Part shown: piece after piece, positions 10,179-55,795 of the stretch
Position numbering within the stretch: the stretch's first letter is position 1
Layout of the letters: the number at the start of each line of letters is the position of its first letter
NCBI GenBank assembly: GCA_965214585.1
Contig: OZ243957.1
Coordinates: 567,331 to 631,330, forward strand
Length of the DNA stretch: 64,000 nucleotides
From: Pyrinomonadaceae bacterium
GTDB lineage: Bacteria; Acidobacteriota; Blastocatellia; Pyrinomonadales; Pyrinomonadaceae
Direction of reading: 5' to 3'
The notes under the pieces: generated by a model
Database searches by the model: none
What the model was told of the DNA's origin: nothing
The model's input: the letters and a program-made list of their open reading frames with translations, nothing else
Program-made: the position numbers and the translations under genes

Positions 10179-10360
10179 TAGGTCAAATTCGCGGAGCGGA
10201 CTGGAGCGCAAGCGTCCCCGCTTGCAATGAGCGCAGAGCGCGAAAAAATGTTGATTATCTGCGGCGTTTAAGTTATCAAACATCTTTTCGCGTCGAAGCG
10301 ACGCTCAATGCAACCGGGACGGATTGCGCTCCAGTCCGCTCCGCGTTTTTTTAAGACCTA
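10179..10360. repeat. MITE-like repeat family B copy 1 (TIR gcggagcggactggagcgc / gcgctccagtccgctccgc)
   Basis: 19-bp terminal inverted repeats at 10191-10209 and 10327-10345; internal cgcttgcaatgagcgc...gcgaaaaaatgttgattat shared with copy at 30950-31059. Confidence 0.75.
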
Positions 10361-10380: not shown

Positions 10381-12708
10381 TCATACCGAGAAAGTTAAGA
10401 TACCGCTTTTGTCTAACTTTACGCTGACTTTACGAATTTTCCGTTCGTGATTTTCCAACAAAAACTTCGCCAACGGCGCACTCAAAAGCGTTTCAATCGT
10501 GCGCTGCAAAGGTCTCGCGCCGTAACTCGGATCAAAACCTTTTTCTGCTAAAAATTCGATTATTTCTTTTGTCCAGACGAGTTCGATATTTTTCTCCGTC
10601 AAGCCTTCGCGCTTCATTATCGCACCGATTTCCTTTTCCGTAATTTCATAAAGCGCATTTTTATCAAGCGTTTTAAATTGCACGACGGCATCGAGCCGAT
10701 TAAAAAATTCGGGACGAAAAAACTGTTTTATTTCCTTCAGATTCAAGATGTTTTCGTTTTCATTAAAACCGATTTCGCCCTTTGCAAACCGCTTCGCGCC
10801 GAGATTTGAAGTCATAATAACAACGCTCGACGTAAAATTCGTAACGCGCCCGAAACGGTCTGTCAATCTGCCTTCGTCAAACAAACCCAAAAGCACGTCA
10901 AAAACCTGCGCGTCCGCTTTTTCGACCTCATCAAAAAGCACGACGCTAAACGGATTTTCGCGCACTTTTTGAATCAAATCCGAAGGCGAACCGTGCGATT
11001 TCGTCAACAGCCGCGTCGCCGAACCGATACCAGAATACTCGCTCATATCAACGCGCACGATTTTCTCTTTCTGCTCATCAGTTTCGCCGAAAAAGAAACG
11101 CGCCAAAACTTTTGCAAGTTCGGTTTTCCCAACGCCCGTCGGACCCGTAAAAAGCAAAACTCCAAGCGGACGCGCTTTGTCATTCAAACCTGCTTTAAAT
11201 GTCGTAACAATTCCCGCAACTTGCTCGCACGCCTGCGGCTGCCCGATAACCTGACGCTCGAACTCCGCGACAACATCTTCAAAATTCAGAGTGATTTCAT
11301 CCAGCAAAAACAGTTCGGGCAAACCCGTCAATTTTATAAAATTTTCAATGACATCTTCGTTCGTAATCTCTTTTTTCCCCTTTTCAAAAACCTGCGCTAA
11401 AAACTGCGTCGTTCGTCCGGGAAATTTTTGATACGGCACGAAGCGCGAAAAAAGTCTGTAAATCAAATTTATCGAGTTTGCCGAATATGAAATGTGCCGA
11501 TTTCGCGCCTGAATTTCGGCAATCTGCGTCAAAACGTCCAACGCCGCTTCCGCCGTAAATTCCGGCAGATGAACAATCTGAAACTGCGCCGCAAAATTCG
11601 GCAGCATTCGCCGGCAAGCGTCCAATTCGGCGGATGTAGCTTCGCAAATCAGACGAAGTTCATTGCGCTCCAAATACGGCACGAGAAACGCCGCCAAACT
11701 TTCATTCGCATCGCGCCCGCCGTATCGCACCAAATCAAGCAGATTTTCCGCGCACAAAACGCCGTCAATATCGGAAAGTTCGCCGATTACTAATTCAAGT
11801 CGCTCTTCCCATTGCCCCAAATACTGCATTCCGGCGATCAATCTGCCGCCGTTCGTCTGCCAAAAACGATGCTTCGGATTTTTGTCTTCCCAATCTTCCT
11901 GCGCTTCCGTTTTGCCGCTTAAATCCCTTTCAATATTTCGCACCGCTTCTGTCAAAACGGTAGTTTTCCCCGTTCCGTTTTCGCCCAAAATTATCACGCT
12001 CGCCCGTTCATTCGTCAGACGTTTTACCAAATCATTAACTTCCGCGTCGCGCCCGTAAGCCTTTGAAATTTTTTTGTTTAAATATTTCGCGCCAAGCGGT
12101 TCGGCGACTTTTTCGAGATTCGGAATTTCCTTAAAAGTTTCCGTTTCCTTTTTCCTGCGCCGCGACTGAAACGAGATTTCTTCGAGCCAAAACTCTTTCG
12201 GCGGCAAAACGCTTGCCAAATCAAGCGGCGTTTGCCCGCGCAATTCTTCCTGAACTTTCATCCGCACCAGATTTTTCAATTCGCTCTCCCGATTAAAAAC
12301 AAATTCGATGTCAAACAACGGCAAACTCGCATAAAAATCGCCGCCCGCATTTTTCCAATACACACACGCCACGCGCAGCGGAAAAACTTCTTCCGCCGTA
12401 AAAGTCCTTTTTTTCAACGGACGCTTGCTCTTTTTCCGCCGCCCTTCGTCATCGGTTTTGATCTCGAATTCCGGGCGCAGTTCAACACGAAATTCCAACA
12501 ATTTCGCCTCCGAATATTCCGGCTGTTCGCGCCAATATTCATCTTCAAAAAGCCATTGCAAATGCTCTTTGAGTTCCGAAACAGCACGATCTTTCTTCGC
12601 ATTAAAAGCCGCCGGAGGAAAATATTCACCTTCGCCCGTAATCGCGTGCGCGGTAAAATTTCCGCCGAAATCCTGCCAGATTAAAATTGGAATGCGAAAT
12701 GTCGCCAT
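10381..12708 (-). CDS. ClpA/ClpB-family double-ring AAA+ ATPase paralog 1 (novel N-domain, degenerate D1 Walker B, no M-domain)
   Basis: 775 aa from MATFRIPIL (ORF extends to 12747). D1 Walker A GENGTGKTT, Walker-B position LCAENL. D2 Walker A GPTGVGKTE, Walker B VVLFDEVEKA, sensor SNLG, arginine finger/sensor-2 GARPLQR. IGF tripeptide at the ClpA IGL-loop position. Confidence 0.8.
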   Translation of the reverse strand: MATFRIPILIWQDFGGNFTAHAITGEGEYFPPAAFNAKKDRAVSELKEHLQWLFEDEYWREQPEYSEAKLLEFRVELRPEFEIKTDDEGRRKKSKRPLKKRTFTAEEVFPLRVACVYWKNAGGDFYASLPLFDIEFVFNRESELKNLVRMKVQEELRGQTPLDLASVLPPKEFWLEEISFQSRRRKKETETFKEIPNLEKVAEPLGAKYLNKKISKAYGRDAEVNDLVKRLTNERASVIILGENGTGKTTVLTEAVRNIERDLSGKTEAQEDWEDKNPKHRFWQTNGGRLIAGMQYLGQWEERLELVIGELSDIDGVLCAENLLDLVRYGGRDANESLAAFLVPYLERNELRLICEATSAELDACRRMLPNFAAQFQIVHLPEFTAEAALDVLTQIAEIQARNRHISYSANSINLIYRLFSRFVPYQKFPGRTTQFLAQVFEKGKKEITNEDVIENFIKLTGLPELFLLDEITLNFEDVVAEFERQVIGQPQACEQVAGIVTTFKAGLNDKARPLGVLLFTGPTGVGKTELAKVLARFFFGETDEQKEKIVRVDMSEYSGIGSATRLLTKSHGSPSDLIQKVRENPFSVVLFDEVEKADAQVFDVLLGLFDEGRLTDRFGRVTNFTSSVVIMTSNLGAKRFAKGEIGFNENENILNLKEIKQFFRPEFFNRLDAVVQFKTLDKNALYEITEKEIGAIMKREGLTEKNIELVWTKEIIEFLAEKGFDPSYGARPLQRTIETLLSAPLAKFLLENHERKIRKVSVKLDKSGILTFSV

Positions 12709-12709
12709 A

Positions 12710-12952
12710 TTATGTGATGAGAACGTCAAAGATTGAGCCGAAATCAACTACTTTGGAAGCAAATAAAAGACACGCCTTCAAATCTTCTTCCTCTAAATCA
12801 GGATAATCATTCAAAATTTCCTCAAACGTCATATCCGAAGCGAGCATTTCCAGAATATCTACCACCCGATAACGCAAACCGCGAACCGTTAAGTTTCCGT
12901 GACAGATTTCTGGATTCATCGTGATTCGTTTTAGTAAATCTCTTTCGCTCAT
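12710..12952 (-). CDS. DUF433 domain protein (antitoxin-like), translationally coupled to Clp-like ATPase 1
   Basis: MNPEICHGNLTVRGLRYRVVDILEMLASDMTFEEILNDYPDLEEEDL matches DUF433 consensus; stop TAA 1 nt before the ATG of the downstream ATPase gene; ORF is open up to 13126 so start uncertain. Confidence 0.55.
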   Translation of the reverse strand: MSERDLLKRITMNPEICHGNLTVRGLRYRVVDILEMLASDMTFEEILNDYPDLEEEDLKACLLFASKVVDFGSIFDVLIT

Positions 12953-13377
12953 AAAGAAAAATTCTAACTCGTTTTCGGTTTCATTCCAAACAAATTTGCC
13001 TTTTACTTTCTCACGCTGTAATCTTTCCGAATTTTTTATCACTAATAGACGAGTCGGCAAATTAAACGCCGTTTGAAAATTTAAAGGAGAATTTCCAAAC
13101 CACATAATTTGTCCGCCAATTCTCACAAATTCGCCGTTTTTGTTGTTAAAGCGGCGGCGATTATCTCACCGATCATATCCTCCGGCGGCACGAGTTTTTC
13201 GGAACGCGCTTTCTGCAATAAAAACCGTTCCGAAAAACTCGTGCCGCTTTCAGCAAACGACGAACATAAAAATTATTGCTTTTCGTCGTTTGAAAATGTA
13301 TATTTGGCAAAGTATCTTTTCCATAAAATTTGTTCACCGCCGAAAAAATAAAAAACTGTAAAAGAGGTTTTAAACAA

Positions 13378-13620
13378 ATGGATTTAGTAAAAGAAATTAC
13401 CGTTAAATCAAATTCGCTGCCGTTCGATCTTCAGCGTGAGGTGTTGGATTTTGTCGAGTTTATCGCGCATAAAAATCGTTCCGCAAATGAAGCGAAACCG
13501 TCCGCATTTCGGAGTGTGCGGGGAATTTTGAAAAACCGGAACTTAGAAAATCTTGAACGGGATTTAGCCGAAGTGCGCCGCGAGATGTGGCAAAACTTTC
13601 CGCGTGAGGAAATGAAATGA
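13378..13620 (+). CDS. DUF2281-like type II antitoxin
   Basis: 80 aa; AGAGG SD; LPFDLQREVLDFVEFIAHK motif shared with antitoxins at 39031 and 39405; ATGA overlap with following PIN gene. Confidence 0.6.
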   Translation: MDLVKEITVKSNSLPFDLQREVLDFVEFIAHKNRSANEAKPSAFRSVRGILKNRNLENLERDLAEVRREMWQNFPREEMK

Positions 13621-14024
13621 GCGCGATTGTTTCCGACACACATTCGCTTTTGTGGTATCTAAACGATTCCGCCAAACTTTCGGCTGACGCGCTTTTTTCT
13701 TTTGAACAAGCCGAAACGGATGGTCAACCGATTTATATTCCGGCGATTGTTTTAGTCGAAATACGTTATCTCGTCGAAAAGGGGCGCAATATTTTGGAGA
13801 GTGATTTTCAGTTGATAATCGGCGAAATGAAGAATCATCTGTCGGCTTTGACCTTTGCGCCGTTAAATCAACCGATCGCCGAAAATTTAGAACAAATTCA
13901 GCGCACTATTGTGCCGGATATGCCTGATAGAATTATTGCCGCAACCGCTTTTACATTGGGTGTGCCGCTTATCAGCAAAGACAGCCAAATTCAAAATCTG
14001 ACGAATATCAAAGTTGTTTGGTGA
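13617..14024 (+). CDS. PIN-domain ribonuclease toxin (VapC-like)
   Basis: 135 aa; PIN acidic residues (D6, E-x, D near C-term IIAATAF motif); 4-nt overlap with upstream antitoxin. Confidence 0.75.
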   Translation: MSAIVSDTHSLLWYLNDSAKLSADALFSFEQAETDGQPIYIPAIVLVEIRYLVEKGRNILESDFQLIIGEMKNHLSALTFAPLNQPIAENLEQIQRTIVPDMPDRIIAATAFTLGVPLISKDSQIQNLTNIKVVW

Positions 14025-14057
14025 TAATTTGGGAGAGGAGATTATAAACGACAAAAT

Positions 14058-17000
14058 TCAATCATTTATAAAATACGCATTTTTTGTCGCTAAACCGCTT
14101 AAAACAAAACTCCTAAGTTCACGAAAAGTCAGATTTTCCTTCGTAATCAAACCGGAACGAAAATCTAAAGCGATACCGCGTTCGTTGTAAATTCGGACGA
14201 CGGAAAAATCTTTTTCGGACTTTTTCTTGAGGTTTTCCGCGTAGATTTTTGAAAAACTTTCACTTGTTTTTAATTCGATAACATCAATTTCAATCGGCGT
14301 AAAATCGCCGCGTTTGGAAACGAAAATGTGATTGCCTGTTTCCGCGTTTGCCAAATCAAAAGCGAACATTCCTTCGAGCATCAGAAACATTTCAAAATAA
14401 TCGGTTTCAATCTCGTCGCCGTTTAATTCCGAAATTTTCAAACCCAATTCCTGTGCGAAAAATCGGCGATAGTTTTCCATAAATAAAGGAATTTTTTCCT
14501 TGCCGAAATAAACATCGGCACAACGAAAAATCATCACACATTTCGCGCTCAGAGGCTTTTCCAAATTTCCCGCAACTGCTTCTAAAAACGCCGTTTCGCG
14601 CCAAACGTCCTGCACATATTCTTCCGCCGCATTTCCAAAATCGGGATTTTCGAGCGCGAGATTTTTCAATTTGTTCGACAAATTTGAACCGCTTAAAAAC
14701 CTGCCGAAATCAATTTCCGCGTTTTTCAAAGAAACCAGACTCCGCCTTCCGGCTCTGGACTTTGGACTACGGACTCTGGACTCTTTCCAGCCGTCAGCGC
14801 GTTCGATCATTCGTTCGACGCGCTTGACGTATTCCTGCGCGAGAAAATATTTCGCCTGATTTTCGTCGTTCGGATCAATTTCTCCGTCGGGTTTAAGATG
14901 CAAAATCCCGGCTTCGATGCGGTCTAAAACGTCTTCGATTTTGTCGAGTTCCGCCGAAACATCCGAAAAATCGTGTGTTTGCCAAACGCTCGCGTCAAAA
15001 GCGAGAGGTTTGATTTCTTCGACGTTTGTTACAAATTCTTCTTTGAGGCGCGAAATTTTCACAATCGTCGGCGCGTTCGTATCAATCGCGGCGAGTCTAT
15101 TGGCAACGGGCTGAATTAAATTTCTCTCAATCGCACGTTTCAACGCCCGCGCACCGAGTTCCGCGTTGTAACCTTCATCAACAATTTTCTCCAGCGCGGA
15201 AGGTTCGAGTTCGATGCGGCAATTTCGGCGGACAAAACCTTCGCGGGCGAAAACTTTCTGCAATTGCAGACGCGCAATTCGCCCGACTTCTTCGCGGCGC
15301 AGATTTTCAAACGGAATAATTTTGTCCAGACGGTTAAAAAATTCCGGTCTGAAAAATTTCTCCGCCGCTTGCCGGTAAATGTTGGCGTTTGATTCGTTTG
15401 TTTCACGAAAACCGAGTTTGATATTCGCTTCGCGCGTGCCGAGATTCGATGTCAAAATTATCAACGCATTTGAAAAATCCGCCGTCCGCCCGAACGCATC
15501 GGTCAGGCGACCTTCGCCCAAAACCTGCAAAAGCAAATTAAAAACATCCGCGTCGGCTTTTTCGATTTCATCCAAAAGCACGACGGAAAAAGGCTGTCGT
15601 CGAATTGCACTCGTCAAAAGTCCTTCCGGTTGGTCAAACGTGCCGACCAGCCGCGCCACGTCAAACGGCGACACAAATTCGTTCATATCAAACCTAAGGA
15701 GTTTTTCTTCCGCACCGTAAAGATACGCGGCGATCTGCTTGGCGGCTTCGGTTTTCCCAACGCCCGTCGCGCCGAGAAACAGAAACGACGCAAGCGGTCT
15801 GCCCGTGTCATTTAGCCGCGCTTTGGCGATTGAAATAACATCGGCGGCGGCTTCGATTGCGGGTTTTTGTCCGATTAAGTTTTCGGAAATCTTTTCGACG
15901 ATTTCCGTCTTTTCCAGTTTTTCGCGGTCATCCAAAAACGCCACTTTCAAACCGCTTTTCGCCTCAAATTCTTTTAAAACATCGTCGCGTGAAATTTCGG
16001 AATCTTGAAATTTATTGGCGATTTGTTTCAAAAAACTCGCCGCCTTTCCGGGAAACGACGCTTCGCGGTTATAACGTCTTTGCAAATCGAGCGCGGTTGG
16101 TAAAACGTCCAAATCGAAACGGCAATCGTGTTTGTGTTCGGCTTCGCGCCTGACCGAAAGCGCGATTTTCAGAGTCTTTTCTTCGCTCGTTTCTTCGAGC
16201 CGGAAAACGTGAAAAAGTTCAGCAAAACTGCGGTCTTTTTCCTTCAAAACGCGAAAAGTTTCCGGCGTAATTTCGCCGACAACGCGAACGTCGCGGCGTT
16301 CGATATACGGTTTTAAAACCTGCGCGACATTCAAATCCGAATTCGCGCTCACGCCCGCGAAAAACAGTCCGAGCAAATCATCAAAATACAACAAATGATT
16401 GTGTTTTTGCGCCGTCTTCAAAATCGCCGTCAGCCGATTTTCCCATTGCCCGACAAACGACATTCCCGAAATCAGACGCTGCGGCGAAATCAGCCACGTC
16501 AGATTTTTGTCCGAACTTTTATTTTTGCGGCTGGTCAATTTTTGAAAAACGTATTCGTGAATCAAATTTGTCTTCCCGACCTGATTTTTACCGACGACGA
16601 TCACCGGGCGTTTGTCCTTTGATTCCAACAACTTAGTAAGTTCGTCTAACTCGTTTTCACGCCCGTTCGCGCGTTCCAAATCGTTGGGAAAAAGTTCGTC
16701 CAAGCTGCGTCCGACGCGCCGCAATTCGCGTCCGCCGTCGAGATGCGATTCGCCGCCGAGCATCGCAAACAGATTTTCCTCTTGGGCTTCATATTTTTGC
16801 GGCAGATGCACATTCAATTCGAGCGTCGTAACAAACGCTTTAACTATAAAAGTATTATCTTCCGGGGTTTGCGAATCTTCCCCGTCGCGCCGTTCGAGAT
16901 GGCGAAAATGTTCGGTCAAAACTTCCACGGCGCGAGTCTGCAAATCTTCGCCGCGCTCGATTTCAAACCAGATTTCCGGCACATTCGGCGTGAACGCGAT

Positions 17001-17318
17001 TTTTTTGCCGAATGCGTCAAGGATCACGAAAAGATATTCGCAATCGAAACTTTTTGAAGCGAGAAACAGACGAAATTTCAAAATCTTCGACGAAAAAACG
17101 GGCGAAAATGTGAACCACGCAAGATCGTAATGACGCGGCTTTTTCCCGTGTTCTTCAAACTGATTTCGCAAACTCTGCGTCAATTTATTGATCGCTCTCT
17201 GCAAACTTTTTCCTTGCTCGGAGGTGTTCAAATTAAAAAGCGGACGCACTACAACCGTCGGCGCGGAATTCTTCAGCGGTTTATGTTCGGTTGCCAAAAT
17301 TGGAATTGTCAGCAGCAT
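14058..17318 (-). CDS. ClpA/ClpB-family double-ring AAA+ ATPase paralog 2 with ~230-aa unique N-domain and ~330-aa C-terminal extension
   Basis: 1086 aa. D1 GKNQVGKTN with Walker B LLYFDDLL (DD not DE). D2 GATGVGKTE, VVLLDEIEKA, SNLG, GARALKR. LGF at the IGL-loop position. N- and C-domains are paralogous to those of the gene at 17990-21229. Confidence 0.8.
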   Translation of the reverse strand: MLLTIPILATEHKPLKNSAPTVVVRPLFNLNTSEQGKSLQRAINKLTQSLRNQFEEHGKKPRHYDLAWFTFSPVFSSKILKFRLFLASKSFDCEYLFVILDAFGKKIAFTPNVPEIWFEIERGEDLQTRAVEVLTEHFRHLERRDGEDSQTPEDNTFIVKAFVTTLELNVHLPQKYEAQEENLFAMLGGESHLDGGRELRRVGRSLDELFPNDLERANGRENELDELTKLLESKDKRPVIVVGKNQVGKTNLIHEYVFQKLTSRKNKSSDKNLTWLISPQRLISGMSFVGQWENRLTAILKTAQKHNHLLYFDDLLGLFFAGVSANSDLNVAQVLKPYIERRDVRVVGEITPETFRVLKEKDRSFAELFHVFRLEETSEEKTLKIALSVRREAEHKHDCRFDLDVLPTALDLQRRYNREASFPGKAASFLKQIANKFQDSEISRDDVLKEFEAKSGLKVAFLDDREKLEKTEIVEKISENLIGQKPAIEAAADVISIAKARLNDTGRPLASFLFLGATGVGKTEAAKQIAAYLYGAEEKLLRFDMNEFVSPFDVARLVGTFDQPEGLLTSAIRRQPFSVVLLDEIEKADADVFNLLLQVLGEGRLTDAFGRTADFSNALIILTSNLGTREANIKLGFRETNESNANIYRQAAEKFFRPEFFNRLDKIIPFENLRREEVGRIARLQLQKVFAREGFVRRNCRIELEPSALEKIVDEGYNAELGARALKRAIERNLIQPVANRLAAIDTNAPTIVKISRLKEEFVTNVEEIKPLAFDASVWQTHDFSDVSAELDKIEDVLDRIEAGILHLKPDGEIDPNDENQAKYFLAQEYVKRVERMIERADGWKESRVRSPKSRAGRRSLVSLKNAEIDFGRFLSGSNLSNKLKNLALENPDFGNAAEEYVQDVWRETAFLEAVAGNLEKPLSAKCVMIFRCADVYFGKEKIPLFMENYRRFFAQELGLKISELNGDEIETDYFEMFLMLEGMFAFDLANAETGNHIFVSKRGDFTPIEIDVIELKTSESFSKIYAENLKKKSEKDFSVVRIYNERGIALDFRSGLITKENLTFRELRSFVLSGLATKNAYFIND

Positions 17319-17330
17319 TCTTTTTCGATT

Positions 17331-17463
17331 TTCACCACGGAGGCGCGGAGGACACGGAGTTTTTTAAAGTAAAGACATTAAAATTTGGAACTTCAAACGA
17401 AACTCGGCAAATTTAAAATATCACTTTAAAAACCTCCCGTGTTCTCCGCGCCTCCGTGGTGAA
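17331..17463. repeat. hairpin element D copy 1 (29-30-nt inverted arms ttcaccacggaggcgcggag[g/a]acacggag, ~74-nt loop)
   Basis: arms at 17331-17359 and 17434-17463; begins 13 nt upstream of ATPase-2 start codon. Confidence 0.8.
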
Positions 17464-17469
17464 CCCGTC

Positions 17470-17841
17470 TTAGTTCACAACTCTTTTGATACCTTGTTTC
17501 AAAAGCACTACATTAAAATTCATCAATAAACCTACCTTTTTTTGTGCCAACTTCAGATATGTCAAAAGTTGCGCCTGATGAATCGGTAATAATTCACGAA
17601 CTGATTTTATTTCGAGGATAATTTTATCTTCGACGATAATATCAAGTCGGTAATCCACATCAATTGAAACACCTTCATAAATTATCGGCAAATAAACCTG
17701 AGTTTCAATATTTAAGCCCGCTTTTCTCAACTCATACGCCAAACATTTTTCGTAAGCACTTTCTAAAAGTCCGGGACCTAAAATCCTGTGAACTTTAATC
17801 GCACATTCAATAATTTTTCCGCTGATTTCGCTAAATTCCAT
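17470..17841 (-). CDS. GxxExxY family protein (PD-(D/E)xK nuclease-like fold)
   Basis: ATG at 17841 with perfect AAGGAG SD; GPGLLESAY = GxxExxY signature; D...EIK nuclease-like motif (RLDIIVEDKIILEIK); 123 aa. Confidence 0.8.
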   Translation of the reverse strand: MEFSEISGKIIECAIKVHRILGPGLLESAYEKCLAYELRKAGLNIETQVYLPIIYEGVSIDVDYRLDIIVEDKIILEIKSVRELLPIHQAQLLTYLKLAQKKVGLLMNFNVVLLKQGIKRVVN

Positions 17842-17857
17842 AAATCTCCTTTTATTT

Positions 17858-17986
17858 TTCACCACGGAGGCGCGGAGAACACGGAGATTTTTTATTGATA
17901 TTTTGATTGGTTAAAATCTAACTGAATCTTAAATCTTAGAATCCCACTTTAAAAAACTCCGTGTTCTCCGCGCCTCCGTGGTGAAA
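17858..17986. repeat. hairpin element D copy 2 (29-nt near-perfect inverted arms, ~71-nt loop)
   Basis: arms at 17858-17886 and 17958-17986; ends 4 nt before the stop codon of ATPase 3. Confidence 0.8.
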
Positions 17987-17989
17987 TAT

Positions 17990-20900
17990 TCATCCAATCA
18001 AATTTTCCGATGTTTCAATTAAATTCGTTTCAATCCACTCGATTAAAACCGTTTGCAAATCAATATTTTCAAGCGAAAAAGTCTTTTCCAAAAACAAATC
18101 TTTGACCTTATTTTGTGCCAAATCATAAACGCGCCGTTCGGTTTGAAACTTTACGGAATCGCGTTTTATCAAATCTTCGGGAAGTTCGTATTTTACAAAT
18201 TCCGCTTCGGTTAAATCAATCAAAACGCGGTTGCTTCGCGTGCCGTGAACAAAGCGGTGAACGCCCGTTTCTGCGCCGAAACGCGGCAGAGCGAGTTCGC
18301 CTTCGATGGAAAGCAAAACGCCGAAAGTTTCCTGTGATGCGGACTTTATAAATTTTTCCGCGTCCGCGATTTCCTTGCGATAGACGGCGCGATTAAAAAG
18401 CAGTTTGTCTTCGATTTTAACGTCTTTTTGTTTTTCCGTCGTGAACGCCAGACAATTTGTGATTTCCGCTTTTGAATGTTTGAAACAAACCGCGAACAGA
18501 CGCAAAAGTTTGAATAACTCGCTCGCGTTTTCGCTGAAAAATGCGAGTTTTATTTCGTTCGGATTTTGATATTGGAATTTCAAAAGTTTAAAAAGATAAT
18601 CTTGAAACTGATTTTCTTTTTTAATTATTTCATCGGCGTATTTTCGGTTTTCGCCCGCCGATTTTCCGTAGATTTCAAGCAGAATTTCATCTTCCGTTCG
18701 GCTGACTTCAAAGGCAAAATCTTTAACATTTTTCAAAAATTTTTCGATTTTCAATTTGCGTTCGATGCGTTTTCGGTCTTCGTCATAAATCCATTTCCCG
18801 CGTTTTTGGGCGGCTTCAAGCCGAATAATTTGATAAATTTCATCGCTTAATTCGGTCAAACGATAACTGGTGAGAAGTTTCTGCGTTCGGCGGCGAAGTT
18901 CGGCGATGCGTTCGGCATTTGTCGCTAAAATTGCCGTCGCCGTTTTACGCTTTTTCGGTTCGTCTTCGCGGATAAAATCGAGCGCGATTTTTCCGTTTTT
19001 AACTGCGGTTTCGACAATCAATTTTTCATCCGTCGGGCGCAAATTGAGTTCGGCGGAAAGCGGCGCGAGCAGATTTTTTTCAATAATCCGTTTCAGCGGA
19101 CGCGCTCCGTAACGAATGTCGTAACCCGTTTTTGCTAAATGCTTTAACACATCTTTGCCGATTTCCAATTTAACGGGACGAAACCGCAAACCGTCGCGCA
19201 TTTTCAGTTTTTCGATTTCCAAATCGGCGATTTTCAACACGGTTTTTTCGTCCAGCGGCGCGAACGGAACGATGCGGTCAAGCCGATTAAAAATTTCCGG
19301 TCTGAGAAAATCACGGACGGCGGAATCGAAATGTTTAACGGCGGCTTGTTTTTGCCGCGAATTATTTACAAAACCGGACTTTCCGCGCTGAAATTCGCTC
19401 GCGCCGAGATTTGATGTCATTACGATAATCGAATTTGTAAAATCCGCCGTGCGTCCGGCGGAATCGGTCAGACGACCTTCGCCGAGCATCTGCAAAAGCA
19501 GATCGAAAAACGAAGAATGCGCTTTTTCAAATTCGTCTAAAAGCACAACCGAGAAAGGCTGTTCGCGCACCTTCGCCGTTAAAAGTCCTTCCGCTTCGCC
19601 CGTTCCGCCGATCAGACGCTGCACCGAAATTGCGTTTGAAAATTCGCTCATATCAAAACGAATCATTCTCGATTCGTCGGAAAAGAAAAATTTGGCGAGC
19701 GATTTTGTCAATTCGGTTTTGCCGACTCCGGTTGGACCGATAAATAAAAGCGAAGCAATCGGTTTTCGCGGGCGCGTGAGTTTTGCTTTAACCGTTGCAA
19801 TCAAATCGGTTATCAGTTTCACGGCTTCATTTTGTCCGATGACTTTTTCCGCAAAAAACTTTTCCGTTTGCGATAAATTGAGCCGGATTTCGTCATTTAA
19901 AAGCAGTTCGGGCAAACCTGTTTCGTTTGAAAATTCCGCGTAAACTTTTTTTATCGAAAGTGTTTCGCCGTTTTCCAAACCGGCAAAAACATTTCGCAAA
20001 AATCTGGCAGGTCTGCCGGGAAAAGCCGAATATGTCGAATATCGGCGATGAATTTGGTCAATCGTTTTTATCGCGTTTGTGTCGGCTTTGTTTGAAAATT
20101 CCTTCGCCGCCGATTCTAAAATTTTCCGGCTCGTTTTTTTGTTCGGTTCTTCGATGCGGATTTGCTGAAACGCGCTCAAAAGATTCGGGTCGCTTTTTTC
20201 CAGAACCGGAATTTGTTCGGGTGTGCATTCGACGGCGACGACGATTTCGCCGCGGGCGATTTTCGGGCGCAGAAACGACGCGATGCCTTGCGTCGAATGG
20301 CTGCTTTTGCCGACTTCGAGCAGTTCGATCAAGTTTCCCAAATGCAAAATCGCGTTTTCTTTTTTCGCCTCGTCAATCAATTTTGAAGCGCGTTCCTGCC
20401 ACATTCCGAATCCGGTTTGTCCGGCGATCAGACGCGCACCGCTTGTCGCCCAAAACTTAAATTCCTTCAAACCGAGTTTTTCACGACGGCGCACCATTTC
20501 ATTGAAAATTGCCGTTTTTCCAACGCCCGCCGCGCCGACTAATAAAACGCCCGTCCGCTGATTTCCTTTGAAAATCTCCGCTAGAAGTTCCGTCTGTTTT
20601 TCCGTTTCGTAAGCGGTTTTTAGTTTTACGTTTGTTAAATCCGTGCCGATTTCTTCTAAAACGGATTTCTTTTCCGCTTCGTCTTTTTCTTCGGCAATCG
20701 CGCGTTGCTTCGCCGTCGGAAGATTGACGGCGAGTTCGTTTTTTTCGATGGAAATATTTTCGGTGCGTTCGAGCCAGCGCAGATATTGCAGAGATTTCGT
20801 CCAACCGTCGCGTTTGAGCGCGGCGAGAATTTCCGTTTCTATTTTCGCTTCAAAATCCTTTTGTTTTCTGGATAAAACAGCGATGTGAAGCGCGGGAATA

Positions 20901-21229
20901 TATGCGTAAAAATAACCGTCTTCGCGCTCGATTTTTACATAGTGAATTTTTACTTTCACCGCATCGCGCCACATTTCCGTCTTTTTCGGCGGTTCGATTT
21001 CCAATTCGATTTCCTTGATCTCCGCGTTTTCCGGCACGATTCGCTTGTATAAATTCGCGGCGTAATCGGCTTTTAAAATCACGTCTGCGTTAACACGGGC
21101 GTTATGTTTTGCCGAATCTTCTTTTGTGTGAAAGCGCGATATTTCGGGAAAATTCAACGCTTCGGAAATGAAAGTTTCGTCTTCGAGATGCTGCGTCAAA
21201 ATTATGAGCGAAAAAAAATGTGTCGGCAT
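17990..21229 (-). CDS. ClpA/ClpB-family double-ring AAA+ ATPase paralog 3 with unique N-domain and ~330-aa C-terminal extension
   Basis: 1079 aa. D1 GAAGVGKTA with degenerate Walker B LHLGNLIE. D2 GPTGVGKTE, VVLLDEFEKA, SNLG, GARPLKR. SGF at the IGL-loop position. C-terminal AETGxHxFV motif shared with paralog 2. Confidence 0.8.
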   Translation of the reverse strand: MPTHFFSLIILTQHLEDETFISEALNFPEISRFHTKEDSAKHNARVNADVILKADYAANLYKRIVPENAEIKEIELEIEPPKKTEMWRDAVKVKIHYVKIEREDGYFYAYIPALHIAVLSRKQKDFEAKIETEILAALKRDGWTKSLQYLRWLERTENISIEKNELAVNLPTAKQRAIAEEKDEAEKKSVLEEIGTDLTNVKLKTAYETEKQTELLAEIFKGNQRTGVLLVGAAGVGKTAIFNEMVRRREKLGLKEFKFWATSGARLIAGQTGFGMWQERASKLIDEAKKENAILHLGNLIELLEVGKSSHSTQGIASFLRPKIARGEIVVAVECTPEQIPVLEKSDPNLLSAFQQIRIEEPNKKTSRKILESAAKEFSNKADTNAIKTIDQIHRRYSTYSAFPGRPARFLRNVFAGLENGETLSIKKVYAEFSNETGLPELLLNDEIRLNLSQTEKFFAEKVIGQNEAVKLITDLIATVKAKLTRPRKPIASLLFIGPTGVGKTELTKSLAKFFFSDESRMIRFDMSEFSNAISVQRLIGGTGEAEGLLTAKVREQPFSVVLLDEFEKAHSSFFDLLLQMLGEGRLTDSAGRTADFTNSIIVMTSNLGASEFQRGKSGFVNNSRQKQAAVKHFDSAVRDFLRPEIFNRLDRIVPFAPLDEKTVLKIADLEIEKLKMRDGLRFRPVKLEIGKDVLKHLAKTGYDIRYGARPLKRIIEKNLLAPLSAELNLRPTDEKLIVETAVKNGKIALDFIREDEPKKRKTATAILATNAERIAELRRRTQKLLTSYRLTELSDEIYQIIRLEAAQKRGKWIYDEDRKRIERKLKIEKFLKNVKDFAFEVSRTEDEILLEIYGKSAGENRKYADEIIKKENQFQDYLFKLLKFQYQNPNEIKLAFFSENASELFKLLRLFAVCFKHSKAEITNCLAFTTEKQKDVKIEDKLLFNRAVYRKEIADAEKFIKSASQETFGVLLSIEGELALPRFGAETGVHRFVHGTRSNRVLIDLTEAEFVKYELPEDLIKRDSVKFQTERRVYDLAQNKVKDLFLEKTFSLENIDLQTVLIEWIETNLIETSENLIG

Positions 21230-23800: not shown

Positions 23801-24910
23801 ATGCTTATTGCCCCGAAACCAAAACAGAGATTTGCCGGAAAGGTATTGATTGCCGCGGCGATAATCGCCGCCGTCATACTATTTTTCCTGCTGTTTTATT
23901 ACGCGATAGACGTAATTTTATCGCTCTTTGCGGGCGTTCTGATGGCGATATTTTTTCGTAAATTGGGCAACAAGCTGAGTCACTACACGAACTTGCCGAT
24001 AACCGTATCGGTTATTTTCGTCGCTTTTCTTTTGATTGGTATTCTCGGCTGGGGCGCGTGGACGCTCGCTCCGAAAGTCGCCGATCAGATAATGAATCTG
24101 CGCGGCGAATTTCCGCTGGTGATGGAAACGGTTAGAACGAGATTAGCCGCATATAATTGGGGAAGATTGATTCTCGAACAGATTCCCGAATGGGATACGA
24201 TCATTGACACGGTTATTTCGGGAGCTTTTCTCAGACGCATCGGCGGATTTTTCTCAACCGGAGTCGGAATCTTCGTAAATTTTATAATCGTCGTTTTGGT
24301 GGCGATTTATCTGGCAATTGAACCGAAAACATACATTGAAGGATTTATAAAACTTTTCCCGTTCGAGCGGCGCGAGCGAATGCGCGAAGTTATCTATGTA
24401 ATCGGCGACACTCTGTTCTGGTGGCTGCTCGGAAGATTTGCCGCGATGATTCTGATCGGCATTTTGATAACCCTGGGCTTGATGTATCTGAATGTTCCTC
24501 TCGCTTTAACGCTCGGAATTATCGCCGCGCTTTTCGATTTTATACCGAACTTCGGTCCGATTCTGTCGGTCATTCCCGCCGCGCTGATCGCTCTCGCCGA
24601 AAGTCCGACGACTGCTTTATATGTCGTGATCTTATACGTTGTCATACAATTTATGGAAAGCTATCTGATAACGCCTCTGATTAACAAAAAGACAATCGAA
24701 CTACCGCCCGTTCTGACCATTGTTTTCCAGATTCTGCTCGGCGTTCTCATCGGCGGACTCGGACTTATTTTGGCATCACCGATCTTAGCCGTAATAATAG
24801 TTTCGGTCAAAATGCTCTACATCGAAGACGTTTTGGGCGACAAAGCGGAAGTTCCGGTTGAAATACCCGATATTGAAGCAGAGAAAGAAAAGGAAGAATC
24901 GGAAAACTGA
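23801..24910 (+). CDS. AI-2E family transporter (PerM-like)
   Basis: 369 aa polytopic membrane protein; paralog of next gene (FIPNFGPILS motif in both). Confidence 0.75.
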   Translation: MLIAPKPKQRFAGKVLIAAAIIAAVILFFLLFYYAIDVILSLFAGVLMAIFFRKLGNKLSHYTNLPITVSVIFVAFLLIGILGWGAWTLAPKVADQIMNLRGEFPLVMETVRTRLAAYNWGRLILEQIPEWDTIIDTVISGAFLRRIGGFFSTGVGIFVNFIIVVLVAIYLAIEPKTYIEGFIKLFPFERRERMREVIYVIGDTLFWWLLGRFAAMILIGILITLGLMYLNVPLALTLGIIAALFDFIPNFGPILSVIPAALIALAESPTTALYVVILYVVIQFMESYLITPLINKKTIELPPVLTIVFQILLGVLIGGLGLILASPILAVIIVSVKMLYIEDVLGDKAEVPVEIPDIEAEKEKEESEN

Positions 24911-24958: not shown

Positions 24959-26095
24959 ATGACGGAAATCGTTAAACAAAACCACTTTATCAAACGCCTT
25001 TTAATTATCTGCGCGGTAATCACGCTGATAATTCTCTTAGTATTTTTCTTTATCAATGTTATAGACGTATTGATGCTGGCGTTTGCGGCTGTTTTGCTGG
25101 CTGTTTTTCTAAACGGTCTGGGAAATCTTTTAAGCCGTTTCGTCAATATCTCCGAAGGCAAATCCGTTCTGCTCGTTTCGTTAATCTTGCTCGTAGTTTT
25201 GGGAATAAGCATCGCTTTGCTTGCGCCGAGCGTTGCCGAGCAGGTCAGGCATCTGCGCGAGGAACTTCCCGAATCCGCCCGAACTTTGAGCGCGAATTTA
25301 TCCGAATACAGTTGGGGCAGAGCGATTATCGAAAATCTGCCAAGCACCGACGACATTATCAACAGAATCAGTTCGGCAAACATTTTATCGAGCGTCGGCG
25401 GATTTTTCTCTTCGACGGTAGGAATGATCGCCAATTTTTTTATAACTATTTTGGTGGCGATTTATCTGGCAACCGAACCGCAGACATATCTGAATGGATT
25501 TGCAAAACTTTTTCCGATCAAACGCCGCCGACGCGTGCGCGAAGTTACGGCTGAAATCGGCGAAACTCTGCAATGGTGGCTGATCGGCAAGTTCGGCTCG
25601 ATGCTGGTGATCGGCGTTTTAACTTGGATCGGTTTGTCAATTATCGGCGTTCCACTCGCCTTAACGCTCGGTCTGATCGCCGGACTTTTATCGTTTATTC
25701 CGAATTTCGGTCCCATTTTATCGGCGATTCCGGCAATTTTGCTGGCGTTCATCGAAAGTCCCGTTACCGCGCTTTACGTTATCGGTTTGTATATCGCCGT
25801 TCAACTGATCGAATCGAATCTGGTCACGCCCTGGATTGAACGGCAAACCGTCGAAATGCCGCCTGCTCTGACGATTCTGGCGCAATTGATCTTAGCCGTT
25901 TTGATCGGCGGATTAGGCTTGGTTTTGGCAACTCCGATTGTCGCAGTCGGAATGGTTTTAGTGCAGATGCTTTACATTGAAGACGTTCTGGGCGACGCGG
26001 ATACGGAAATTAATCAAGAAAATAATCTGGTTGATATAGCCGAAGAAAAAATCACGGACGCAAAAGACGCGGTTGTAAATTTAACTCACGAATAA
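24959..26095 (+). CDS. AI-2E family transporter (PerM-like), tandem paralog
   Basis: 378 aa; same architecture and shared motifs with 23801-24910. Confidence 0.75.
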   Translation: MTEIVKQNHFIKRLLIICAVITLIILLVFFFINVIDVLMLAFAAVLLAVFLNGLGNLLSRFVNISEGKSVLLVSLILLVVLGISIALLAPSVAEQVRHLREELPESARTLSANLSEYSWGRAIIENLPSTDDIINRISSANILSSVGGFFSSTVGMIANFFITILVAIYLATEPQTYLNGFAKLFPIKRRRRVREVTAEIGETLQWWLIGKFGSMLVIGVLTWIGLSIIGVPLALTLGLIAGLLSFIPNFGPILSAIPAILLAFIESPVTALYVIGLYIAVQLIESNLVTPWIERQTVEMPPALTILAQLILAVLIGGLGLVLATPIVAVGMVLVQMLYIEDVLGDADTEINQENNLVDIAEEKITDAKDAVVNLTHE

Positions 26096-55695: not shown

Positions 55696-55795
55696 GGAGG
55701 CGCATCTCGTCTGGTGGCGGGCGCGGTCTTCAAAACCGTCTGCGAGATTGCGAGAGCAAATCTTGGGTGGGTTCGATTCCCACACGCCTCCGCCA
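55696..55795 (+). tRNA. selC: tRNA-Sec (anticodon TCA), selC candidate
   Basis: 8-bp acceptor GGAGGCGC/cGCCTCC. 6-bp D-stem CTCGTC/GGCGGG with wobble pairs, as in E. coli selC. Anticodon loop cTTCAAAa. Long 7-bp variable arm. T-loop GGTTCGATTCC; discriminator G then CCA. Confidence 0.7.

Follow-up and report, generated by a model that had tools for sequence, protein, structure and literature searches.

A conserved bacterial operon of three paralogous double-ring AAA+ ATPases, two of which end in a release-factor-like domain

Introduction

The closest described counterparts of the motor proteins analyzed here are ClpA and ClpC, each the product of one gene, in which a Clp_N domain is followed by two AAA+ rings with no M-domain-sized insertion. 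Their second ring combines AAA_2 and ClpB_D2-small modules with a GYVG pore loop and a ClpP-docking loop (IGL in ClpA, VGF in ClpC), while ClpB/Hsp104 carry a coiled-coil M-domain in ring 1. Pex1/Pex6 consists of paralogous double-ring subunits whose ring 1 binds ATP but is hydrolysis-deficient and whose ring 2 is active. Cdc48 lies outside the Hsp100/Clp clade. In the pair Cdc48/p97 and Vms1, a double-ring AAA+ unfoldase works with a release-factor-like module that recognizes stalled ribosomes (PMC6514570). The plant protein PrfB3, a relative of RF2, has lost both the SPF and the GGQ motif and binds mRNA 3' ends (PMC5897788).

Here, we describe a locus in a window of 64,000 nucleotides of a Pyrinomonadaceae genome, which encodes three paralogues (P3, P2, and P1). 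They resemble ClpA/ClpC in their two rings, ring-2 modules, loop (xGF) at the ClpP-docking position, and lack of an M-domain-sized insertion, which also sets them apart from ClpB/Hsp104. Unlike ClpA/ClpC, they have a predicted HicB-like N-domain rather than Clp_N, miss the ring-1 Walker B glutamate, have lost the ring-2 GYVG by deletion, and are three co-operonic proteins, two of which (P2 and P3) carry a 330-aa C-domain derived from a release factor. This C-domain shares with RF1/RF2 (and PrfH) domains 1, 2, and 4 and the "E.G.H(R)" and "R.Y...D.R" strands, but has the GGQ domain replaced, a shortened SPF/PxT loop, and a fusion to an AAA+ motor. Compared by description, PrfB3 is likewise a release-factor homologue without both functional motifs that has been put to a new use, although it is a free-standing chloroplast mRNA-stabilizing protein with no ATPase fusion. 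The parallel with Cdc48/p97–Vms1 is conceptual only: Vms1 is a separate, catalytically active protein of the unrelated archaeo-eukaryotic eRF1 type, whereas the module of the trio is of the bacterial release-factor type, has no catalytic domain, and is joined to the ATPase in cis. The way in which Walker B degeneracy differs between the paralogues resembles the pattern in Pex1/Pex6 and other hetero-hexameric AAA+ rings, but here in three bacterial paralogues rather than two, which are predicted to hetero-oligomerize. We found no description of the trio in the literature, including a review of release-factor evolution (PMC6514570), which bears out the original prediction that the architecture matches no described system. 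The trio is an undescribed conserved operon of soil bacteria.

Results

Three minus-strand open reading frames, transcribed in the order P3, P2, P1 (Table 1), lie where they had been predicted as same-strand double-AAA+ paralogues, and both Pfam and alignments agree with that assignment. Their pairwise identity is 32–35%. For P1, an alternative start at an upstream TTG (12747) would give a protein of 788 aa.

Table 1. Features of the P3–P2–P1 locus (positions in the window)
Feature	Position	Strand	Description
P3	17990-21229	-	First operon gene, 1079 aa; predicted HicB-like N-domain, ring 1 (Walker A GAAGVGKT; HLGN replaces Walker B), ring 2 canonical by motifs, release-factor-like C-domain
P3 release-factor-like domain	17993-18922	-	aa ~770-1079; alignment, profile vs PDB, hhalign
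P2	14058-17318	-	Second gene, 1086 aa; divergent N-domain, ring 1 (Walker B YFDD, conserved), ring 2 canonical by motifs (LGF loop), release-factor-like C-domain
P2 N-domain	16674-17318	-	aa 1-215; predicted alpha/beta fold like the HicB antitoxin N-terminal domain
P2 release-factor-like domain	14061-14996	-	aa ~775-1086; matches release-factor domains 1, 2, 4
P1	10381-12708	-	Third gene, 775 aa from ATG; P3-homologous N-domain, ring 1 (Walker B CAEN), ring 2 canonical by motifs (IGF loop), without release-factor-like domain
PD-(D/E)XK gene (PDDEXK_3, "GxxExxY")	17470-17865	-	Between P3 and P2; Pfam E 1.2e-43
DUF433 gene	12710-13126	-	Between P2 and P1; Pfam E 3.2e-21
Toxin-antitoxin pair	13330-14024	+	DUF2281-like antitoxin (13330-13620) overlapping PIN toxin (13617-14024); Pfam
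Hairpin element, copy 1	17329-17463		Directly downstream of PDDEXK_3 gene
Hairpin element, copy 2	17854-17989		Directly upstream of PDDEXK_3 gene; abuts P3 stop codon

P3–P2–P1 is an ancient conserved operon of three paralogous ClpA/ClpC-type double-ring AAA+ ATPases. Among GTDB species genomes, we detected 354 relatives in Acidobacteriota, Planctomycetota, and Verrucomicrobiota, with representatives in Blastocatellia, Gemmataceae (including Zavarzinella formosa DSM 19928), Isosphaeraceae, Phycisphaerales, Tepidisphaerales, and Verrucomicrobiota. The three paralogues fall into separate orthologue groups, with full-length genes scoring ~550–1800 bits within their group, versus ~300–390 bits across groups. 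Where there was enough flank, P3 lies upstream of P2 in 41 of 56 loci and P1 downstream of P2 in 44 of 58; 10 of 46 P3/P2 junctions are 4-nt overlaps, and one genome with a nonadjacent P3 keeps it 1.5 Mb away. Identity to the window protein peaks within its family and declines with taxonomic distance, with no patchy pattern, and the operon is flanked by housekeeping genes. There is no fourth conserved gene, the best neighbor family occurring in only 9 of ~80 loci, and genes for ribosome rescue or translation are not conserved beside the operon in these ~80 loci.

All three proteins match Pfam AAA_2 (E 1e-36 to 1e-45) and ClpB_D2-small (E 1e-14 to 1e-18) in ring 2; ring 1 matches AAA_16 weakly and aligns to ClpA/ClpB D1. 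They thus share the layout of class I Hsp100/Clp proteins, with a pair of AAA+ modules in tandem, of which the second is AAA_2-type and carries a ClpB_D2-small lid. As predicted, they are atypical members, reaching none of the NCBIfam Clp equivalog cut-offs and scoring about one-third of those for ClpA (TIGR02639, 310–347 bits vs. 993) and ClpB (TIGR03346, 324–352 vs. 1232); the ClpV model gives 228–271 bits (cut-off 885) and the ClpK and ClpG models 225–281 (cut-off 1900). Residues 194–743 of P2 align to 164–721 of Escherichia coli ClpA in one collinear stretch (~550 residues), so there is no M-domain insertion; models of ClpB split into two stretches on these proteins, whereas the alignment to ClpA, which has no M-domain, does not. 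Pfam detects no Clp_N in any of the three and nothing on residues ~1–210 or beyond ~745. Absence of both an M-domain and Clp_N had been part of the original prediction, as had a degenerate ring-1 Walker B beside a canonical ring 2, and each of these points holds. Ring 1 retains Walker A and an aromatic pore loop in all three paralogues but misses the catalytic Walker B glutamate, and each degenerate form is conserved among its orthologues: DD in 61 of 65 P2, G[NSG] in 40 of 40 P3, and, in most P1, E or D with N, R, K, or D after it, but never DE. In ring 2, GPTGVGKTE, LDE[IF]EKA, SNLG, and GARPL are found and conserved, and by these motifs the ring is predicted to be catalytically canonical. 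Its pore loop has a 5-residue deletion that takes out "YVGYE" relative to Thermus thermophilus ClpB, with loss of the GYVG tyrosine; an aromatic is present in 2 of 46 P1, 57 of 65 P2, and 15 of 40 P3.

The IGF, LGF, and SGF tripeptides that had been placed at the position of the ClpA IGL loop are real. "geIGFnene" of P1 aligns exactly on that loop and also on "kyVGFnvqd" of Bacillus subtilis ClpC, and the best PDB match for this segment is the BAP chimera 5ofo. Overall, xG[FLY] occurs in 150 of 151 orthologues, and the canonical [ILVM]G[FLYM] in 36 of 46 P1, 58 of 65 P2, and 15 of 40 P3, the P3 tripeptide being often noncanonical with SGF the commonest. The loop at the ClpP-docking site is therefore conserved, and we infer from sequence that the proteins are ClpP-dockable; judging by known ClpA/ClpC architecture, the C-terminal domains would share a ring-2 face with these loops, and docking could be hindered. 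A search with a ClpP query sequence covered the window and 84 related loci and found no clpP gene linked to the operon.

Modeling suggests that each paralogue opens with an alpha/beta N-domain like that of the HicB antitoxin, which would replace Clp_N. Profile searches with Pfam gave nothing here, and the HicB-N-like fold is a structural match of the N-domain model, with no detectable sequence similarity to HicB. Unlike HicB, there is neither a HicA partner nor a DNA-binding C-domain, and the model comprises ~170 ordered residues versus ~80–90 in isolated HicB N-domain chains. The proposal that the N-domains are paralogous among all three proteins survives in part: hhalign relates P1 to P3 (probability 95.6%, E 1.2e-8) and, weakly, P2 to P3 (E 3e-4), but finds no significant similarity between P1 and P2. 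Of the two shared patterns, "IPIL" is restricted to P1 and P2, and "FYA" to P1 and P3.

The 330-aa C-terminal extensions of P2 and P3 are paralogous as predicted (hhalign probability 92.5%, E 5e-7) and share the AETGxHxFV segment; their fold, which had been taken as novel, matches a described one. On sequence and fold comparisons, each is a GGQ-less class-I release factor homologue with domains 1, 2, and 4, a homology that rests on three independent methods. A Foldseek search with the C-domain returned release factors for all top 50 matches, 47 of them at probability 0.96–1.00, while the top 32 hits of a C-domain profile HMM against PDB sequences were all RF1 or RF2 (E down to 2.4e-11). The profile alignment spans RF2 22–187 and 287–325, skipping the SPF loop and the GGQ domain; RF2 residues 188–286 have no counterpart, and domain 3 (~100 aa), which bears GGQ, is replaced by ~30 residues. 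Conserved motifs are "AETGNHIFV" (E.G.H) and "VVRIYNERGIALDFRSGL" (R.Y...D.R) in P2, and "AETGVHRFV" and "RRVYDLAQNKVKD" in P3, where the R-to-D spacing equals that of "RTYNFPQGRVTD" in release factors. In both paralogues and in every phylum sampled, E.G.H and R.Y...D show little or no variation, but E.G.H and R.Y are 27–68 aa apart versus ~125 aa in release factors. Homology to domain 1 (PCRF region) and the codon-recognition superdomain of class-I release factors is thus present, and GGQ and domain 3 are not: GGQ occurs in only 4 of 105 C-domain sequences, and the one of these that was inspected (L062) has it within the domain-1 region. Compared with release factors, the loop following "E.G.H" is ~5–7 residues shorter, and stop-codon tripeptides are at chance level (SPF in 2 and P[AVI]T in 10 of 105). 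With a shorter stop-codon loop and no GGQ domain, the C-domain cannot act as a release factor. In a search of 1.84 billion representative proteins, 583 matched at E<=1e-10; the 150 best listed all carry the domain at the C-terminus of ~1060–1150-aa proteins or collinear fragments of them, with no free-standing copies.

The DUF433, toxin-antitoxin, and PD-(D/E)XK genes interleaved with the triad were confirmed by Pfam, and the hairpins by palindrome and fold analysis. A palindromic element of ~135–144 nt lies on both sides of the PDDEXK_3 gene (4 arms vs. 0 expected), and copy 1 folds into a hairpin of dG -77.9 kcal/mol (z -11.3). None of the three kinds of gene is found in related triad loci (~80, three phyla), and in L024, the closest relative, the gaps measure ~130 and 0 nt at the points where genes are inserted in the window. 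Because they are absent from related P3–P2–P1 loci, these genes are local, selfish insertions into the intergenic gaps of the operon in this lineage. Two PADLOC models, DolB and PDC-M37B, match the ATPases (E 1e-20 to 1e-31), almost wholly in the generic AAA_2 ring-2 region and lid (~residues 377–647), and no interleaved gene matches a PADLOC defence model above noise, save for a weak Cas4-like nuclease similarity. We rejected the candidate Dodola (DolB) and PDC-M37 systems, the match being mostly confined to ring 2, with no neighbor matching a partner model and no conserved neighbor.

Discussion

We tentatively propose, as a possibility somewhat short of an even chance, that the trio forms a hetero-oligomeric, ClpP-dockable unfoldase targeted to the ribosome by release-factor mimicry. 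The ribosome is probably its target. The three paralogues would assemble into one hetero-oligomeric ring, in which ring 1 would bind ATP for assembly and ring 2 would provide the motor. This is proposed because the degeneracy of the Walker B (xEN/DD/GN) and of the ring-2 aromatic is paralogue-specific, conserved, and complementary. The release-factor-like arms would act as A-site or decoding-center mimics and bring the machine to stalled, vacant, or damaged ribosomes, where it would unfold a protein bound to the ribosome or pull it out; wherever the xGF loops dock onto housekeeping ClpP, that protein would be degraded. More specifically, and more doubtfully, a hetero-hexameric Clp/Hsp100 machine might dock its P2 and P3 arms in the A site or decoding center of such ribosomes and pull out a nascent chain, trapped factor, or ribosomal protein for delivery to ClpP. 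Loss of the ring-2 pore tyrosine in P1 and most P3 would be unusual for a processive threading motor feeding ClpP and counts against the proposal. So do the lost GGQ domain and shortened stop-codon loop, PrfB3 as a precedent for reuse away from the A site, the lack of a linked clpP and of a conserved translation-related neighbor, and the possible hindrance of docking by the C-terminal domains.

The same loss, with an aromatic missing from 44 of 46 P1 and 25 of 40 P3 and a pore loop five residues shorter, is what a ClpP-independent remodeller would explain, in which ring-2 hydrolysis drives conformational work (e.g., prying factors or subunits apart) with no threading into a protease and the xGF loop has another structural role. 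The frequently noncanonical P3 tripeptide and the lack of an operon-linked clpP point the same way. We nevertheless consider it distinctly unlikely, given a near-universal xG[FLY] aligning precisely on ClpA IGL and ClpC VGF, the ring-2 aromatic of most P2, and the ring-1 pore aromatics of all three; to our knowledge, ClpB-type disaggregases have no hydrophobic-Gly-Phe/Leu ClpP-docking motif. A different departure concerns the target. The release-factor domain might have been reused as an RNA- or protein-binding, regulatory, or oligomerization module of a specialized Clp chaperone or protease, acting in ordinary proteostasis or on a specific nonribosomal client. Loss of the GGQ domain, the shortened decoding loop, the precedent of PrfB3, the lack of a conserved translation-related neighbor, and the fact that P1 works without the C-domain all favor such reuse, but we judge it rather unlikely: domains 1, 2, and 4 are all kept with core motifs conserved over three phyla, and the restriction of the domain to this architecture among the 150 best matches argues that it has a specific, conserved role tied to the motor. 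We know of no binding partners of the release-factor fold core other than the ribosomal A site, RF3, and PrmC.

Far less probable than any of these is the accessory stress or anti-phage defence island of the original prediction, in which the ATPases would cooperate with the toxin-antitoxin, DUF433, and PD-(D/E)XK genes. The mobile-looking hairpins and toxin-antitoxin genes inside the cluster and the DolB and PDC-M37B matches speak for it, but those matches are to generic ring-2 sequence and lid, and the interleaved genes resemble defence genes no further than the weak Cas4-like similarity. Without these genes, the triad recurs with its order unchanged across three phyla, between housekeeping flanks, and diverges with taxonomy; co-occurrence of triad, DUF433, and GxxExxY genes was seen in no related locus. 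This is in essence the evidence that the original prediction had named as telling against it.

If the more doubtful reading of a hetero-hexameric machine that docks in the ribosome and delivers to ClpP is right, the trio would be a prokaryotic, cis-fused functional analogue of the Cdc48–Vms1 pathway of ribosome quality control and, among bacteria, the first natural Hsp100 ring that is heteromeric.

Three ATPases outside every named Hsp100 group

P1, P2, and P3, the three Clp-type double-ring AAA+ ATPases of the window, are transcribed in the order P3, P2, P1 and share 32 to 35% pairwise identity. Pfam assigns ring 2 of each protein, the second AAA+ module, to AAA_2 (E 1e-36 to 1e-45) with its lid ClpB_D2-small, gives a weak AAA_16 signal alone for ring 1, and finds no Clp_N. 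In a search of PDB sequences, P2 194-743 aligned with Escherichia coli ClpA 164-721 in a single collinear stretch, and there is therefore no M-domain–sized insertion. P1, P2, and P3 are thus members of the Hsp100/Clp class-I superfamily that, as the original prediction had it, have neither Clp_N nor M-domain. The NCBIfam models for ClpA, ClpB, ClpV, ClpK, and ClpG all match them, at about one third or less of the curated cut-offs (324 to 352 bits against 1232 for ClpB, 310 to 347 against 993 for ClpA). Set against every named Hsp100 member, the three proteins fall outside on cut-offs, Clp_N, M-domain, ring-1 Walker B, and the ring-2 GYVG loop. Residues ~1-210 and those beyond ~745 have no match in single-sequence Pfam, NCBIfam, or PADLOC searches. 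Most of the 120 matches listed for P2 are full-length relatives (43 to 84% identity over 97 to 100% of the query), mostly from Pyrinomonadaceae and other Blastocatellia, which their sources label merely "AAA family ATPase" or "ClpA/ClpC"; these matches assign the window to Acidobacteriota. One P3-like homologue (P0196, 1448 aa) is ~350 aa longer than the others and has extra AAA-type Pfam matches, which may reflect a fusion or a gene-calling artefact.

Features of the operon and of the surrounding window
Feature	Position	Strand	Description
Imperfect inverted repeat	10185-10350		49 nt, 84% complementary, 68 nt between arms; in the gap between the P1 end and the M16 peptidase gene
P1	10381-12708	minus	ORF, 775 aa from ATG; TTG at 12747 would give 788 aa
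DUF433 gene	12710-13126	minus	Pfam
Perfect inverted repeat	13185-13247		22 nt, GCGGCACGAGTTTTTCGGAACG, 19-nt loop
DUF2281-like antitoxin overlapping PIN toxin	13330-14024	plus	Pfam
P2	14058-17318	minus	ORF, 1086 aa
Palindromic element	17329-17463		arms CACCACGGAGGCGCGGAGRACACGGAG
PDDEXK_3 ("GxxExxY") gene	17470-17865	minus	Pfam
Palindromic element	17854-17989		arms CACCACGGAGGCGCGGAGRACACGGAG
P3	17990-21229	minus	ORF, 1079 aa
AI-2E family transporter gene	23801-24910	plus	tandem paralogous pair with the next
AI-2E family transporter gene	24959-26095	plus	
SPFH/Band-7 protein gene	47344-48516	minus	glycine-rich linker, double zinc ribbons at C-terminus
tRNA-Sec gene	55696-55791	plus	Rfam 70.9 bits; ARAGORN anticodon TCA

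The C-extension descends from class-I release factors

The part of P2 and P3 that follows ring 2 had been described as a paralogous extension of unknown fold. The paralogy was confirmed (hhalign 92.5%, E 5e-7), while the fold proved to be that of release factors. When P2 745-1086 was modeled using AlphaFold2 with 94 orthologues and no templates (pLDDT 91.3, pTM 0.90), all of the top 50 Foldseek matches in the PDB were release factors, 47 of them at probability 0.96 to 1.00 and with E down to 7.7e-7. The low global TM-scores (0.3 to 0.4) are to be expected, because one domain is missing and the others are arranged differently. We also combined the C-extensions of ten P2 and nine P3 proteins, drawn from several phyla, in a profile HMM and ran it on every PDB sequence; each of the top 32 matches was RF1 or RF2 (Thermus thermophilus RF2, E 2.4e-11; Streptococcus mutans RF1, 6.8e-10). 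The alignment covers RF2 22-187, comprising domain 1 and the part of domain 2 that reaches to the strand EAGVHRLVRP (AETGVHRFV in P3, AETGNHIFV in P2), and RF2 287-325, which is domain 4 (IRSYVLDKNYVKDHRTGL, with counterparts VVRIYNERGIALDFRSGL in P2 and RRVYDLAQNKVKD in P3). RF2 188-286, comprising the SPF loop, the next strand, and the whole GGQ domain, has no counterpart beyond ~30 profile positions.

The motifs E.G.H and R.Y...D hardly vary, if at all, in P2 and P3 C-domains from all phyla sampled, and E.G.H and R.Y are 27 to 68 residues apart, versus ~125 in release factors. Among 105 C-domains, GGQ is found in four, lying within the domain-1 region in the one case examined (locus L062), and SPF and PxT occur at chance level. 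The C-domain therefore shares its ancestry with release factors but, without GGQ, PxT, or SPF, fails their functional definition. A per-member Pfam scan at E ≤ 10 detected PCRF in one of 19 C-domains (E 0.054); annotation is missing because single-sequence Pfam overlooks the relationship. A C-domain profile searched against 1.84 billion representative proteins matched 947 at E ≤ 1e-3 and 583 at E ≤ 1e-10. In every one of the best 150 matches listed, it forms the C-terminal end of a protein of ~1060 to 1150 aa or of a collinear, N-terminally truncated fragment of such a protein; in this sample, the release-factor derivative occurs only fused to this ATPase. Taken together, three independent and concordant comparisons show that the C-extension is a class-I release-factor descendant that has no catalytic domain.

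The N-domains preceding ring 1 are unrelated to the C-domain (hhalign E 0.31). Their proposed three-way paralogy holds in part: P1 and P3 are clearly homologous (95.6%, E 1.2e-8), P2 and P3 are weakly related (E 3e-4), and the P1/P2 comparison is not significant. A profile of P1 and P3 orthologues matched nothing in PDB sequences, even at E 10, and a per-member Pfam scan at E ≤ 10 gave nothing meaningful; the similarity of the N-domain to HicB is therefore purely structural.

Motor motifs are lost in a paralogue-specific manner

As predicted, ring 1 has a degenerate Walker B and ring 2 is catalytically canonical in all three proteins (GPTGVGKTE, LDE[IVF]EKA, SNLG, GARPL). Walker A is retained in ring 1 of P1, P2, and P3, and Walker B reads CAEN in P1, YFDD in P2, and HLGN in P3. 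This loss of the catalytic Glu is specific to each paralogue and conserved within it, with DD in 61/65 P2 orthologues, G[NSG] in 40/40 P3 orthologues, and, in most P1 orthologues, an E or D that precedes N, R, K, or D. The pore loops of ring 1 still have an aromatic (M.YLG in P1, MS[YF]VG in P2, ..GFG in P3). The ring-2 pore loop is five residues shorter than in ClpB, YVGYE being gone together with the GYVG tyrosine, and has an aromatic in 57/65 P2 sequences versus 2/46 P1 and 15/40 P3. At the ClpP-docking position, "geIGFnene" of P1 falls exactly on the ClpA IGL loop, the best PDB match for this segment being the ClpB-ClpA chimera BAP (5ofo), and it also aligns with "kyVGFnvqd" of ClpC. The canonical tripeptide [ILVM]G[FLYM] is present in 36/46 P1, 58/65 P2, and 15/40 P3 sequences, and xG[FLY] in 150 of all 151.

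The triad is a conserved operon

A profile of ring 1 from P2 orthologues, run on one genome for each bacterial species, yielded 354 confirmed relatives, of which the best 80 loci are from Blastocatellia, Planctomycetota, and Verrucomicrobiota. The planctomycetes include Gemmataceae (among them the cultured Zavarzinella formosa DSM 19928), Isosphaeraceae, Phycisphaerales, and Tepidisphaerales; metagenome-assembled genomes labelled Clostridia, Heliobacteriaceae, Alcaligenaceae, and Actinomycetota look mis-binned and were left out of the argument. Classifying every ORF of these 80 loci against P1, P2, and P3 showed that each has its own orthologue group (~550 to 1800 bits within the group for full-length genes versus ~300 to 390 across), and that the genes as a rule follow one another on a single strand as P3-P2-P1. 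Where the contig extends far enough, P3 lies upstream of P2 in 41/56 loci and P1 downstream of P2 in 44/58. Junctions between P3 and P2 overlap by 4 nt in 10/46 cases, and most gaps are below 200 nt. The gaps are ~130 and 0 nt in the closest relative, and 55 and 10 nt in a 47%-identity relative. One genome lacks an adjacent P3 but keeps its orthologue 1.5 Mb away. Clustering all other ORFs of the 80 loci revealed no fourth conserved neighbor: the commonest family occurs in nine, on which ground we rejected an operon-encoded partner protease, adaptor, or ribosome-rescue gene. When the window was searched from end to end with Rfam, no RNA family was detected within the operon or close to it. Elsewhere in the window, the tRNA-Sec gene indicates that the organism probably uses selenoproteins.

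The interleaved DUF433, toxin–antitoxin, and PDDEXK_3 genes are present as predicted, and so are the hairpin elements. Near-perfect palindromic elements of ~135 to 144 nt on both sides of the PDDEXK_3 gene have arms with four pattern matches versus none expected and an RNA fold of −77.9 kcal/mol (z −11.3), with no match in Rfam. Together with the PDDEXK_3 gene they resemble a small mobile cassette, and copies of the arm are found in another Blastocatellia genome (locus L040, 483-541 and 8058-8075), where they lie immediately before P2 and immediately after P1. The perfect inverted repeat that separates the DUF433 gene from the divergent DUF2281/PIN pair is probably a bidirectional terminator or operator. 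In other loci, the P2-P1 gap holds an insertion encoding a ~1670-aa protein on the opposite strand (L010, 12859-17874), with similar large ORFs in six loci; this gap spans 6 to 7 kb in L017 and L018, and several Pyrinomonadaceae relatives have a 5- to 7-kb insertion there. Intergenic gaps of the operon thus appear to be recurrent insertion sites. No toxin–antitoxin, DUF433, or PDDEXK_3 gene accompanies the triad in related loci, and these genes are selfish insertions into its gaps. The flanks are housekeeping (aspartate kinase, M16 peptidase, aminotransferase, aspartate-semialdehyde dehydrogenase, AI-2E transporters), and the aminotransferase is found again in close relatives. What had been named beforehand as evidence against a stress or defence island, a triad kept in a core context and unlinked from the toxin–antitoxin or hairpin elements, is essentially what we observe.

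Discussion

Established here are the domain layout of the proteins, the operon that their genes form, the origin of the C-domain from a release factor that has lost its catalytic domain, and the distribution of motifs. On this basis, we propose that P1, P2, and P3 join in one hetero-oligomeric ring. The genes are co-operonic, translationally coupled, and kept together even when unlinked, and their degeneracy is complementary and conserved, the same pattern as in Pex1/Pex6-type rings. Ring 1 would serve as an ATP-binding assembly ring and ring 2 as the motor. The release-factor–like arms would target the complex to the A site or decoding center of the ribosome, a site which, with RF3 and PrmC, is to our knowledge the sole partner of the core of this fold, and the xGF loops may dock on housekeeping ClpP. 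We regard this combined model as tentative, somewhat short of an even chance, and a ribosome-docking heteromeric Clp machine as more doubtful still.

The targeting step competes mainly with reuse of the C-domain independently of the ribosome, for which plant PrfB3 offers a precedent: this relative of RF2, which lacks both SPF and GGQ, binds the 3′ end of an mRNA (PMC5897788). Docking on ClpP competes mainly with a remodeller that works without ClpP. Two observations suggest it, namely the deletion in the ring-2 pore loop and the absence of a clpP gene linked to the operon, since tblastn with an E. coli ClpP query detected none within the window or across 84 loci. Against it stand the xG[FLY] loops, which are nearly universal. 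A defence function is very improbable, and we rejected the island reading, since the triad is conserved without the interleaved genes and the PADLOC matches to DolB and PDC-M37B fall almost wholly in the generic ring 2 and its lid.

A literature search turned up neither a Clp/release-factor fusion nor the P3-P2-P1 triad, and nor did a review of release-factor evolution, where AAA+ appears only with Cdc48-Vms1 (PMC6514570).

At present, tmRNA, ArfA/ArfB, RqcH, and HflX-type factors account for ribosome rescue and quality control in bacteria, and ClpXP, ClpAP, and Lon act, as far as we know, solely after peptide release. If our model is true, release-factor domains in cis on an AAA+ unfoldase would tie ribosome recognition to unfolding and degradation in a family abundant in soil Acidobacteriota and Planctomycetota (354 species-genome matches, at least 583 sequence clusters). 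Such an unfoldase would, moreover, give bacteria a first candidate for a heteromeric Hsp100 ring of natural origin, whose division of labor is seen in paralogue-specific motif loss. Whether or not the ribosome link is wrong, a large family of "AAA family ATPase" and "ClpA/ClpC" proteins now has a defined architecture and the release-factor fold a newly documented fate, and the cultured carrier Z. formosa DSM 19928 makes these hypotheses directly testable.
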